A DNA stretch of 49,854 nt from a virus (taxonomy: Duplodnaviria; Heunggongvirae; Uroviricota; Caudoviricetes): the IMG/VR virus record IMGVR_UViG_2529293239_000010; one strand, written 5' to 3'. Both the position numbers and the translations under genes were made by a program. How positions within the stretch are numbered: the first letter of the stretch is position 1; the number at the start of each line of letters is the position of its first letter. The notes below the pieces were generated by a model, which was not told the DNA's origin, did not search any database, and saw only the letters and a program-made list of their open reading frames with translations. This document shows, one piece after another, positions 16,134 to 17,108 of the stretch.

Positions 16134-16178
16134 CACTTATTTTCCCTGGCTCGCTTTTGCGGGCTTTTTTTTAAATGT

Positions 16179-16920
16179 CTCACAATTCAGGCGGTTGACT
16201 GTTGTCTGGTTTGCGGGGAGTTTGTTAAAAGAAACTGGCATGGTGAATCCCCCTGTGCGGAGGGGCAATCAGCGAGTAGGTATATGGGATAATCGCGGAT
16301 TCAGGTGCTGGTACTGAATTCACCGGGAGGCACCCGGCACCATGCAATGGCACATAGCGCCACTCTCCAGCCCCTCTCCGGAGGGGCTTTTCTGTGCCGG
16401 ATACATCACAGTTTCTGGAACCTTAGGTACTACAGTATCAGTCAGGGTGCTATATTTTCAGATGTGATGAAAGCCTGTCAGCAGGCAGGGCGTATCGGAA
16501 ATGACCCAGTAGAGAAAACGTTGACTCAGATACCGGTGCTGAGTTACCGGGAAACCGGCATCACATGACCGCTATCCTTCCAGGCCCATCCGCTCCGGTG
16601 GGCCTTTTTACTGCAGAAAACAGGTTCCCCGTTAAATGCTATGTTGCTCACAATTCAGTAAGTTGACAGTTGCCTGTCAGACTGGGCATTTGTTAAAAAA
16701 ATTTCGCATGGTGAATCCCCCTGAGCGGAGGGGCGACTGGTGACGGTATAATCTCTGATTATCAAAACGAGAATGACGCGGGTTTAGTGGCACCGGGCTG
16801 AACTCACCGGGAGGCACCCGGCACCATGTGCATGATGATACAGATACGCGGCTTTAGCCCCTCTCCGGAGGGGCTTTCTTATGGACAAAAAAAGCCCGCG
16901 CTGGGAGACGCGGGCGGCAA
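16179..16920 (+). repeat. Two tandem copies (period about 468 bp) of a structured non-coding module with conserved hairpins
   Basis: Both copies share CTCACAATTCAG, TTGAC, TTTGTTAAAA, GCATGGTGAATCCCCCTGNGCGGAGGGGC, CACCGGGAGGCACCCGGCACCATG and the perfect hairpin GCCCCTCTCCGGAGGGGC; no ORF with a ribosome binding site; terminator-like hairpins at about 16572..16600 and 16894..16916. Confidence 0.6.
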
Positions 16921-17108
16921 GGAATAAACAATAAAACGTGAAGTAATATTTCAGCTGGCGAATAATACCCCATAGTAATCACTCTGCGCAACTGCGCGGT
17001 CTTTTTCGAATTGCGGGCTGTAGTCTCCCTTCTGCCATTGTCCTGTAACTTCCGGACTTCAGCCTGCTCCTTATCTGACTCACAACATTATCCCGCCCGG
17101 GAGGATTC

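Follow-up and report, generated by a model that had tools for sequence, protein, structure and literature searches.

A tandem array of STnc100-family small RNA genes between the tRNA cluster and nanS-p of a lambdoid Escherichia coli prophage

The window, a 49,854-nucleotide stretch of viral DNA (IMG/VR record IMGVR_UViG_2529293239_000010), includes an interval at positions 16134-17108 that lies between three phage tRNA genes and a nanS-p type sialate O-acetylesterase gene (Table 1), the latter labelled as an SASA family carbohydrate esterase on identical DNA (L001). The prophage is a lambdoid one of E. coli without stx, and the interval is its 'moron' site, with the late promoter and tRNA cluster on one side and nanS-p and the lysis genes on the other; annotated identical and related loci (L001, L002, L003, L004 and L009) place it in the late region, after Q and the tRNAs and before nanS-p and the lysis genes. 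Tree 2014 described a "dyad of Hfq-binding sRNAs" at this site in lambdoid prophages, after the late promoter and before the lysis genes, and the interval is an instance of it. The exact sequence of the interval is present in hundreds of E. coli genomes. The terminator that follows the tRNA cluster is common to Stx2 phages, in which stx2A begins just past it. In total, 10 terminator-like hairpins were found in 16100-17200, as compared with 1.2 expected from shuffled sequences, and five on the plus strand (at 16148, 16369, 16582, 16856 and 16984) lie between the tRNAs and nanS-p. The last of these is kept in Sakai Sp5, Sakai Sp4 and E2348/69.

Table 1. Features of the tRNA to nanS-p region, with positions in the window.
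Feature	Position	Strand	Basis or remark
Three phage tRNA genes	15884..16133	+	ARAGORN, Rfam tRNA matches, annotation of identical DNA (L001) and of Sakai Sp5/Sp4
tRNA with CAT anticodon (ileZ type; Met per ARAGORN)	15884-15959	+	
tRNA Arg-TCG	15967-16043	+	
tRNA Arg-TCT	16057-16133	+	
Intrinsic terminator after the tRNA cluster, GGCTCGCTTTTGCGGGCT and T-run	16148..16173	+	Terminator scan, Sakai Sp5 sequence, alignment
Putative promoter region of copy A: upstream box CTCACAATTCAG, TTGACT (16195-16200), TGtTAAAAG (16223-16231)	16179..16237	+	
STnc100-family sRNA gene copy A, linker type I	16209..16399	+	RF02076 136.3 bits, model 1-206/206
Diverged STnc100-like paralogue copy B	16438..16615	+	RF02076 30.1 bits, E 1.8e-4, full model length
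Putative promoter region of copy C: second CTCACAATTCAG box, TTGACA (16663-16668), TGtTAAAAA	16647..16705	+	Direct repeat, alignments
STnc100-family sRNA gene copy C, linker type II	16677..16886	+	RF02076 165.4 bits, model 1-206/206
EcOnc08/21/42-type sRNA, tail to tail with copy C	16887..~17080	-	Alignment with E2348/69, Stx2_95 and Sakai; predicted 5' end
Terminator-like hairpin CTGCGCAACTGCGCGG and TCTTTTTCG	16984..17008	+	Terminator scan; antisense within the minus-strand sRNA
nanS-p type sialate O-acetylesterase gene, 617 aa	17109..18962	+	ORF list; downstream boundary of the locus

The initial annotation, made from the sequence alone, described the interval as devoid of a credible ORF and as carrying functional structured elements rather than decayed coding sequence, and both statements held. 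The longest ORFs (87, 93, 81, 46 and 42 aa) overlap the tRNAs or are antisense to the RNA units described below, and a Pfam search of these five gave no match above threshold and a single sub-threshold match of 14 bits. In the PGAP annotation of identical DNA (L001), a partial pseudogene for a 'hypothetical protein' lies antisense to copy A, as might be expected if the interval were the remnant of a deleted coding gene such as stxAB or another moron. Such an origin is scarcely credible, given the lack of Pfam families and the absence of blastn or tblastx similarity to stx2AB across the whole window. Moreover, the changes are compensatory in RNA helices and not codon-like, and the same units occur intact beside intact stx2AB. 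Structured RNA genes are indicated by the assignment to a family curated in Rfam, by covariation, and by the Hfq-CRAC and Northern blot results published for the homologue EcOnc27.

Two direct repeats are present in the interval, one of 88 nt (16179-16266 versus 16647-16734; 80% identity, spacing 468) and one of 31 nt (16314-16344 versus 16798-16828; 97% identity, spacing 484). Three hairpins noted initially were located in both copies, namely TCCCCCTGNGCGGAGGGG at 16248-16265 and 16716-16733, CCGGGAGGCACCCGG at 16323-16337 and 16807-16821, and GCCCCTCTCCGGAGGGGC at 16370-16387 and 16857-16874. Tandem Repeats Finder reported just an 11-nt micro-repeat; the copies have diverged too far for it to detect a 468-bp array. 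A covariance-model search, which had been suggested as a check, returned two full-length matches to RF02076 (STnc100; gathering score 47 bits) of 136 and 165 bits for copies A and C, with E-values over the whole window of 5.6e-30 and 1.9e-37, respectively, far beyond chance. The 16134-17108 interval is a tandem array of the catalogued STnc100 family, also known as EcOnc27 or sRNA103. The core RNAs of copies A and C, for both of which minimum free energy (MFE) folds were obtained, extend over ~16238-16393 and ~16706-16882, and these copies score 164 and 210 bits against R1, a covariance model of our own. From the argO end through the unit, copy A was aligned to the single Sakai Sp4 copy without visible differences.

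The module had been described as two copies with a period of about 468 bp. The repeats are real (468-484 bp), but the units number three, the middle one (~16454-16615) having been missed by repeat finders because it is too diverged. This copy B, with a core RNA at ~16464-16611, matches R1 with 34.3 bits (E 1.7e-7), and, at 30.1 bits against the gathering score of 47, it is not counted as a member of RF02076. Its independent MFE fold has the same architecture (z -2.73), with all five helices kept via compensatory changes, and an extended -10 element of its own (TGcTATATT, 16449-16457) and a terminator (16582-16605, followed by T5; terminator scan) were identified. The stretch that contains copy B (16400-16650) is 100% identical in E. 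coli ATCC 11775.

The RNAs of STnc100 type are ~150-180 nt long and fold with a closing stem of 8 bp that encloses a multi-branch core (hairpins H1, variable H2, H3 and H4), on the 3' side of which a single-stranded linker of 15-28 nt is followed by a Rho-independent terminator hairpin and U-tail. As proposed initially, folding and compensatory changes were assessed. The single-sequence folds of copies A, B and C independently agree on this architecture, and the RF02076 consensus structure is kept. Among 14 distinct family sequences, 94.3% of cells were paired and 21 of 37 pairs were changed on both sides, in an alignment that was fitted to the model and is therefore biased toward the structure. 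None of 500 shuffles reached the observed values, and controls in which the alignment was slid gave at most 5 pairs and at most 48.5% pairing. The family alignment includes many G-U pairs, the equivalents of which on the other strand are A-C mismatches.

Among nine canonical copies, identity is 0.90 in the closing stem and H1, 0.81 in H3/H4 and 0.92 in the terminator, as compared with 0.36 in H2 and 0.47 in the linker. The copies thus differ mainly in H2 and the linker. Linker type I is found in copy A, type II in copy C and type III in the Sakai Sp5 unit, and linker-specific probe sequences are GGCACAUAGCGCCACUCUCC for copy A, GACCGCUAUCCUUCC for copy B and GAUGAUACAGAUACGCGGC for copy C. As the scaffold is constant and the linker is swapped, the linker would be the place to look for targets. 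The U-tails of copies A and C are interrupted (UUUUCUGU and UUUCUUAU, respectively) and are not ideal for Hfq.

Perfect palindromes such as GCCCCTCTCCGGAGGGGC, and the conserved CTCACAATTCAG box before each canonical copy, which could be a protein site, might instead indicate that a phage or host protein binds these elements as DNA, and that they are not RNA helices. This is almost certainly not the case, since the helices allow G-U pairs and compensatory changes that keep pairing but not sequence, and every helix of copy B differs in sequence. In addition, the two halves of the 8-bp closing stem are separated by more than 100 nt, and T-runs follow the terminal hairpins on one strand only.

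Each STnc100 copy has its own terminator and probably its own promoter. A scan of the locus with the sigma-70 consensus gave no plus-strand promoter at its threshold, and the plus-strand promoters proposed in Table 1 are inferences from the conserved boxes and the published 5' end of PasD2, an RNA with the same scaffold. The upstream box of copy A corresponds to invariant columns in the alignments, and the PasD2 5' end, when its published coordinates are placed on the alignment, falls at the G of GCAUGG. The 5' ends are uncertain by ~40 nt, as the start of PasD2 coverage, the start of the Rfam model and the Northern blot sizes of EcOnc27 (235/247 nt) disagree. A transcript from GCAUGG to the second plus-strand terminator, antisense to AsxR, was considered for the 235/247-nt EcOnc27 species and rejected; the distances to the first and second terminators are 171 and ~281 nt, and neither fits. 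An upstream start, or processing of an stx2 read-through transcript, fits better.

On the minus strand, an sRNA of EcOnc08/21/42 type converges on copy C. Its terminator (16915-16894) and U-run (16893-16887) were identified by the terminator scan, its CCUUGCC seed is the reverse complement of 16916-16922, and a promoter-like site (ATGCCA-17-GATAAT, 17115-17087) was found by the promoter scan. The element is ~95% identical to the EPEC RIL-seq sRNA E2348C_1409.E2348C_1408.IGR (tables of PMC8550237), and this identity, the intrinsic terminator and the seed assign it to the type. The EPEC sRNA and EHEC EcOnc08/21/42 (Sp4/Sp15) share its terminator, seed and site between STnc100 and nanS-p, and differ from it by just a few substitutions. 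The length of RNAs of this type was estimated as 182 nt in EPEC and is ~271 nt on an EHEC Northern blot. For the EPEC homologue, expression and Hfq-dependent pairing with the cfa, dppA and tir mRNAs were reported, and the seed is complementary to its RIL-seq target motif GGCAAGG (PMC8550237). Taken together, the interval is very probably a prophage sRNA cluster, in which three tandem plus-strand STnc100 paralogues face a convergent minus-strand sRNA of EcOnc08/21/42 type.

The initial annotation placed the module in the stxAB slot and suggested an alignment with Stx and non-Stx prophages to see whether it replaces stxAB. In Stx2 phages, stxAB lies between the tRNA terminator and one resident STnc100 copy, and in Sakai Sp5 this unit (208 bits) lies 75 nt downstream of stx2B. 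When the interval was aligned with Stx2_95 and Sakai Sp5, copy C and everything 3' of it proved collinear with the spacer between stx2B and nanS-p. Only copies A and B lie at the stxAB insertion point. Hence, the proposed position is correct for these two copies, but the module as a whole is not a replacement of stxAB and coexists with it, copy C being resident beside stxAB in Stx2 phages.

Hfq-binding anti-sRNAs of E. coli prophages had also been mentioned as possible relatives. The link to Hfq appears sound, in that the Rfam assignment and the Hfq-CRAC and Northern blot data for EcOnc27 would place the units among the prophage sRNAs that associate with Hfq in pathogenic E. coli. The anti-sRNAs AgvB and AsxR occupy the same moron site, where they make up the published 'dyad' together with STnc100-type RNAs, and AsxR lies directly 3' of the STnc100 unit in Sakai Sp5 (PMC4104026). 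The units found here are nevertheless neither AgvB nor AsxR, and it is most unlikely that they are anti-sRNAs of this type, which act as sponges for core sRNAs like GcvB or FnrS. AgvB and AsxR are 51-60 nt long, are encoded on the opposite strand, convergent with STnc100 (PMC4104026) and with the late operon, and combine a conserved 3' region of ~42 nt with a variable 5' seed, whereas the units are ~150-190 nt long, unrelated in sequence and on the plus strand. Neither RF02702 nor RF02703 had a match at E<=10 on either strand of 16100-17150, or at gathering score in the whole window, although the same search detected AsxR (88.1 bits) and AgvB (40.9 bits) in Sakai Sp5. The anti-sRNA slot is filled here by a different RNA, the one of EcOnc08/21/42 type.

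Copies A and C resemble EcOnc27 of EHEC Sakai Sp5 and sRNA103 of EDL933 in their five-helix fold, their orientation relative to the late operon, the site before nanS-p and the presence of a convergent 3' sRNA. The EcOnc27 locus has one unit with linker III and stxAB upstream, whereas three tandem units and no stxAB are found here. The EcOnc27 Northern probe is the reverse complement of the Sakai Sp5 unit, and the EcOnc27 Hfq-CRAC peak overlaps that unit. Binding of EcOnc27 to Hfq has been shown, and the 247-nt form of the RNA loses stability when Hfq is absent (PMC4104026 supplement). EcOnc27 is the same RNA as sRNA103, overexpression of which raises fimZ and espA (PMC7873438, PMC12711010), and SNPs in STnc100/EcOnc27 are among the features predictive of HUS in O157:H7 (PMC12711010).

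PasD1 and PasD2 of EPEC E2348/69 (EcOnc13) have the same scaffold and lie upstream of a sialate esterase gene; they are ~172 nt long and Hfq-dependent, with a seed in the linker just 5' of the terminator and with RIL-seq targets, and have also been detected by Northern blot (PMC8550237). PasD and STnc100 have been described as structural homologues (bioRxiv 10.64898/2026.05.13.724894), and the score of PasD2 is 41 bits with RF02076 and 28.6 bits with R1. The possibility that the window holds a copy of PasA or PasD was considered and rejected, as blastn with PasD2 (word size 7, E<=1e-3) gave no match in the window; PasD shares the scaffold alone, and its seed, UGUGAG, is missing from the linkers of copies A, B and C. 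PasD copies are reported to be dispersed (bioRxiv 10.64898/2026.05.13.724894), unlike the tandem units described here.

Two array types, collected through a 27-mer seed and to that extent a biased sample, are I-B-II, present in the window, and III-B-I, present in E. coli 4/2-1 and phage PhiR5_2. OmrA/OmrB and PrrF1/PrrF2 are likewise adjacent duplicated sRNA paralogues in which one part is conserved and another differs. Their sequences are unrelated to those of the array, in which a large multi-branch scaffold on the 5' side is conserved and the 3' linker varies. Unlike them, the array is carried by a prophage, and its copies have been reshuffled from one phage to another. The same fold, without a terminator of its own, was found in the dicF-dicB spacer of Qin-type prophages, K-12 included, inside the operon and directly before the dicB ribosome-binding site. 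The stem in this spacer was considered as an RNase III site and rejected, since the published cut lies before dicF and coincides with the 5' end of the 190-nt species.

By analogy with these homologues, the locus would give rise to expressed, Hfq-associated sRNAs. In the lysogen, three STnc100-type RNAs would be made from their own promoters and would bind Hfq through the terminator and U-tail, as Hfq binding is known for EcOnc27 and PasD1/2, and copies A, B and C, through their different linkers, may each pair with a different set of mRNAs of the host or the prophage. In the lytic phase, Q-modified polymerase that starts at the late promoter would read through all of the terminators. It is improbable, though less so than the other alternatives, that the structures act mainly in cis, either as a terminator stack that shields nanS-p and the lysis genes from tRNA/upstream transcription in the lysogen or as a structured leader with a part in stabilising or processing the late transcript made under Q antitermination. 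The five plus-strand terminator-like hairpins between the tRNAs and nanS-p, the orientation of all units with the late operon and the terminator-less scaffold of the same fold in the dicF-dicB spacer are consistent with such a role. However, the homologues accumulate as discrete RNAs that are bound to Hfq and have numerous partners in RIL-seq, and a simple terminator stack needs neither a conserved multi-branch core nor covariation. Roles in cis and in trans are not mutually exclusive.

The family itself is already known: it is in Rfam, Bakta annotates it automatically, Hfq-CRAC, Northern blot and RIL-seq have all detected it, and several publications describe its position beside stx2. The array is ordinary for this region of lambda-like E. 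coli prophages. What is new, modestly, is the unannotated middle paralogue, copy B, and the presence of tandem copies with a common scaffold and different single-stranded linkers. A tentative interpretation, for which the odds are rather against, is that the STnc100 fold is a reusable RNA chassis of lambdoid phages with interchangeable seed linkers, that the arrays arise by recombination between phages, and that the B type is a third subfamily. If so, recombined arrays would give one prophage several regulators with different targets, the B type would be an unrecognised subfamily beside canonical STnc100 and PasD, and the terminator-less scaffold of the dicF-dicB operon would point to a seed-independent function of the scaffold in stability, processing or chaperone loading. 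The locus matters little as a discovery and somewhat as a pointer to a linker-based search for targets of STnc100/EcOnc27, for which the array offers three natural linker variants in one strain that can be used in experiments.

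A scan of the whole window at Rfam gathering thresholds identified two full-length matches to RF02076, the Rfam family 'Gammaproteobacterial sRNA STnc100' (gathering score 47), designated copies A and C. They lie in the interval 16134-17108, bounded on the left by the last of three phage tRNA genes and on the right by a nanS-p type esterase ORF. The three hairpins quoted in the initial annotation are accommodated by the RF02076 consensus structure, TCCCCCUGNGCGGAGGGG being the first internal hairpin, CCGGGAGGCACCCGG the last and GCCCCUCUCCGGAGGGGC the terminator, and the multi-branch core is closed by a long-range 8-bp stem, GCAUGGUG...CACCAUGC. 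Searching the interval against Rfam at a permissive threshold added copy B, a diverged middle paralogue that spans the full model length at a sub-gathering score; R1, a covariance model built here from five canonical copies (STnc100 units such as A and C), also matched it in the whole window. Copy B differs from the other copies in every helix. When folded alone it has the architecture of A and C, with closing stem AUGUGAUG...CAUCACAU, hairpins GCCUG/CAGGC, GACUCAG/CUGAGU and CCGG/CCGG, and a terminator (GGCCCA..UGGGCC) followed by U5.

Features of the window
Feature	Position	Strand	Evidence or detail
dicB start codon	~4362	-	
STnc100-like scaffold	4369-4524	-	R1, 39.4 bits, E 8e-9
DicF	4537-4588	-	
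sok antitoxin RNA match	11188-11363	+	RF01794, 120.5 bits
DNA methyltransferase gene	14784-15834	+	
Methyltransferase poly-T tract	~15706-15713		
Three phage tRNA genes	15884-16133		
Copy A	16209-16399	+	RF02076, 136.3 bits, E 5.6e-30
Partial pseudogene, 'hypothetical protein'	16228-16353	-	RefSeq/PGAP
Copy B, RF02076 match	16438-16611	+	30.1 bits, E 1.8e-4
Copy B, R1 match	16454-16615	+	34.3 bits, E 1.7e-7
Copy C	16677-16886	+	RF02076, 165.4 bits, E 1.9e-37
Convergent sRNA	16887 to ~17080	-	~95% identity to E2348/69 'E2348C_1409.E2348C_1408.IGR'
Convergent sRNA terminator	16915-16894	-	Terminator scan; U7 tail
Terminator-like hairpin	16984-17008	+	
Promoter-like site	17115-17087	-	Promoter scan; ATGCCA-17-GATAAT
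nanS-p type esterase ORF	17109-18962		617 aa
ALIL pseudoknot match	21687-21803	+	RF01497, 116 bits
IS009 RNA match	47594-47792	+	RF02111, 227.5 bits

The repeat finder detected two direct-repeat families in the interval, one spaced by 468 bp and the other by 484 bp, and the quoted hairpins are present in A and C at equivalent positions; the divergence of the copies is too great for Tandem Repeats Finder, which did not detect this array. Region 16100-17200 has ten terminator-like hairpins where shuffles predict 1.2. The interval lacks a credible ORF, as first noted; the longest ORFs overlap the tRNAs or are antisense to the repeats, and five of the longest, among them a 42-aa ORF antisense to copy A, gave no Pfam match above threshold. 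In L001, an annotated locus with DNA identical to the window, RefSeq includes no ncRNA in the interval and calls a partial pseudogene antisense to copy A (L001 4369-4494). Comparable calls antisense to STnc100-type units occur in loci L005, L006 and L007, and are probably a recurrent mis-annotation of an sRNA gene.

Covariation was assessed on 15 matches to R1 (14 distinct sequences) from the window, Stx2 phages, one non-Stx phage, prophage Sp5 of EHEC Sakai, the EPEC strain E2348/69, E. coli 4/2-1 and phage PhiR5_2. Standard pairs filled 94.3% of pair cells and both-sided changes were seen in 21 of 37 pairs, values that column shuffling did not match in any of 500 trials; when the 3' partners were slid by 1-3 columns, pairing fell to 36-49% and double-change pairs to at most 5. 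Because the matches were aligned by fitting to the model, the alignment is biased toward the structure; independent single-sequence folds nevertheless agree with it. The helices include many G-U pairs, which on the opposite strand are A-C mismatches, and this favours a + strand RNA over DNA palindromes. The initial observation is real, and structured RNA was correctly recognised in it.

Since the interval belongs to a known Rfam family and has a published arrangement, it is already known. Tree et al. 2014 (PMC4104026) described 'convergent sRNAs', EcOnc02/AsxR and EcOnc27, 3' of stx2B, an organisation repeated in seven further Sakai prophages; EcOnc27 (Sakai 1268411-1268490, + strand) gave Northern signals of ~235/247 nt, and the 247-nt form was destabilised without Hfq. 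EcOnc27 overlaps the Sp5 STnc100 match, a unit to which its Northern probe is reverse-complementary. EcOnc27 has been equated with sRNA103, overexpression of which raises fimZ (PMC7873438). STnc100 has further been placed 75 nt downstream of stx2 and detected in outer-membrane vesicles (PMC12370729, 2025), and HUS-predictive SNPs lie within EcOnc27/STnc100 (PMC12711010, 2025).

A single STnc100 unit is located between stx2B and nanS-p in the Stx2a phage Stx2_95 (160 bits) and in Sp5 (208 bits), and this spacer is collinear with copy C and all sequence 3' of it. The tRNA terminator GGCTCGCTTTTGCGGGCC and its T-run are intact in Sp5, with the stx2A start 46 nt beyond. The order in the non-Stx phage phi296 and Sakai prophage Sp4 is tRNAs, terminator, single STnc100 unit, convergent sRNA and nanS-p. 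As judged by these gene orders, stxAB has been inserted after the tRNA terminator and ahead of a resident STnc100 unit. No stx sequence is present in the window, where copies A and B (~470 bp) occupy the insertion point; the proposed 'stxAB slot' is apt to that extent, though the module is not a replacement of stxAB, an STnc100 unit coexisting with stx2. From the argO end through the copy A linker, the alignment has no visible differences from the single Sp4 unit. Hence, the window resembles an Sp4-type locus that has gained, by recombination, B and the 5' portion of a C-type unit.

The RNA convergent with STnc100 and directly 3' of it in Sp5 is the anti-sRNA AsxR (RF02703, 88 bits; AgvB model, 41 bits). 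The window sequence at this position is unrelated, and neither model matched the interval even at E≤10. The link to anti-sRNAs suggested initially concerned the wrong element and the wrong strand. The window instead has a different, putative minus-strand sRNA, homologous to an E2348/69 candidate (NC_011601, minus, 1444797-1444978) that is itself homologous to EHEC EcOnc08/21/42 (PMC8550237). In Sp4, the Hfq-CRAC peaks EcOnc08 and EcOnc21 fall exactly on the homologous stretch past the STnc100 unit. The window sRNA includes CCUUGCC (reverse complement of 16916-16922), complementary to GGCAAGG, the motif of the RIL-seq targets of the EPEC homologue, partners of which include the cfa and dppA 5' UTRs and tir (PMC8550237). 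Antisense within this sRNA, a terminator-like hairpin, CTGCGCAACTGCGCGG followed by TCTTTTTCG, is kept in every related locus examined, including Sp5, Sp4 and E2348/69, and might stop read-through from the STnc100 units.

While family, fold and context of A, B and C were observed directly, their role is drawn from analogy with PasD, an Hfq-dependent EPEC sRNA upstream of a sialate esterase gene and a structural homologue of STnc100 (bioRxiv 10.64898/2026.05.13.724894, 2026 preprint). This homology was reproduced (PasD2 against RF02076, 41.4 bits). The predicted PasD seed lies in the linker just 5' of the terminator. We infer that the three copies are Hfq-dependent, trans-acting, base-pairing sRNAs, whose conserved scaffold and terminator would make them stable and let them bind the chaperone. 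The linker motifs CUCUCC (A) and UCCUUCC (B), read directly from the sequence, are both anti-Shine-Dalgarno-like. In the lysogen, each copy would be expressed from its own promoter; boxes CTCACAATTCAG, TTGAC(A/T) and TGtTAAAA are conserved ahead of A and C, and TGcTATATT lies ahead of B. Estimates of the 5' end (PasD2 coverage start, Rfam model start, EcOnc27 Northern sizes) disagree by up to ~70 nt. After induction, Q-modified polymerase would read through all three. Acting in cis, as a stack of terminators or as the leader of the late transcript, is a less likely alternative, compatible with the trans-acting role preferred here.

The 1281-bp stretch 15860-17140 was 100% identical in 25 of 25 chromosomes among the matches listed, from clinical, animal and environmental isolates, with 351 records at ≥99% identity, and was at least 80% covered in 340 of 5426 complete genomes. 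Copy B is present in 673 of the 5426 as two variants, one at ≥99% identity (345 records, type strain ATCC 11775 among them) and one at ~86% (327 records), and in five sequenced phages. Among GTDB species representatives, a conserved B-type 27-mer occurred in one, that of E. albertii; 117 IMG/VR contigs also have it (first 80 listed).

Several other elements were observed. A fourth STnc100-like scaffold fills the dicF-dicB spacer, with a counterpart in K-12 MG1655 (L010 948-1103; R1, 35.3 bits). It keeps the closing stem, H1, H3 and H4 (CCUGGAGGCACCAGG) and lacks the terminator, the dicB ribosome-binding site being at the linker position; with its flanks the closing stem reaches ~28 bp (MFE -70.4 kcal/mol, z -4.85). 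No description of it was found in the literature searched; the published RNase III site is upstream of dicF. The methyltransferase gene upstream of the tRNAs has T8 where the intact 349-aa gene of strain 14EC047 has T7, shifting the frame 42 codons ahead of the normal stop, which could be real inactivation, a phase-variable tract or a sequencing error. The sok match implies that the early region of the prophage has a hok/sok-type toxin-antitoxin locus. The ALIL pseudoknot is the frameshift signal of an IS3-family transposase, and its match suggests that an insertion sequence lies past the lysis genes; an IS009 RNA match lies near the window end.

Among nine canonical copies, identity was 0.90 in the closing stem plus H1, 0.81 in H3/H4 and 0.92 in the terminator, against 0.36 in the variable H2 region and 0.47 in the single-stranded linker between closing stem and terminator. 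The linkers sort into discrete types: I (AAUGGCACAUAGCGCCACUCUCC; copy A, Sp4, phi296, E2348/69 PP6), II (GCAUGAUGAUACAGAUACGCGGCUUU; copy C, Stx2_95), III (Sp5 EcOnc27, first copies of 4/2-1 and PhiR5_2), B-type (GACCGCUAUCCUUCC) and PasD-type (including UGUGAG). The single phi296 copy is C-like in its 5' part and A-like in its linker, therefore parts of units recombine. Sufficient flank was available for 90 B-type loci (the window and all those fetched, not independent lineages): 43 have the I-B-II array of the window and 28 have III-B-I, the remainder being partial arrays or B alone. In the related prophage of E. coli 4/2-1 (L007), a DUF3927 ORF and a single intact tRNA accompany a III-B-I array, the former ahead of it, and the array is followed by opposite-strand iraM (anti-adapter; 2982-3317, minus) rather than nanS-p; the sRNA array thus shifts from one late-region backbone to another. 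No prior description of the B-type paralogue or of such arrays was found in the literature searched. The sub-threshold B-type paralogue and the tandem arrays with constant scaffold and variable linker are two small additions that remain; the distinct linkers of A, B and C would direct them to different target sets.
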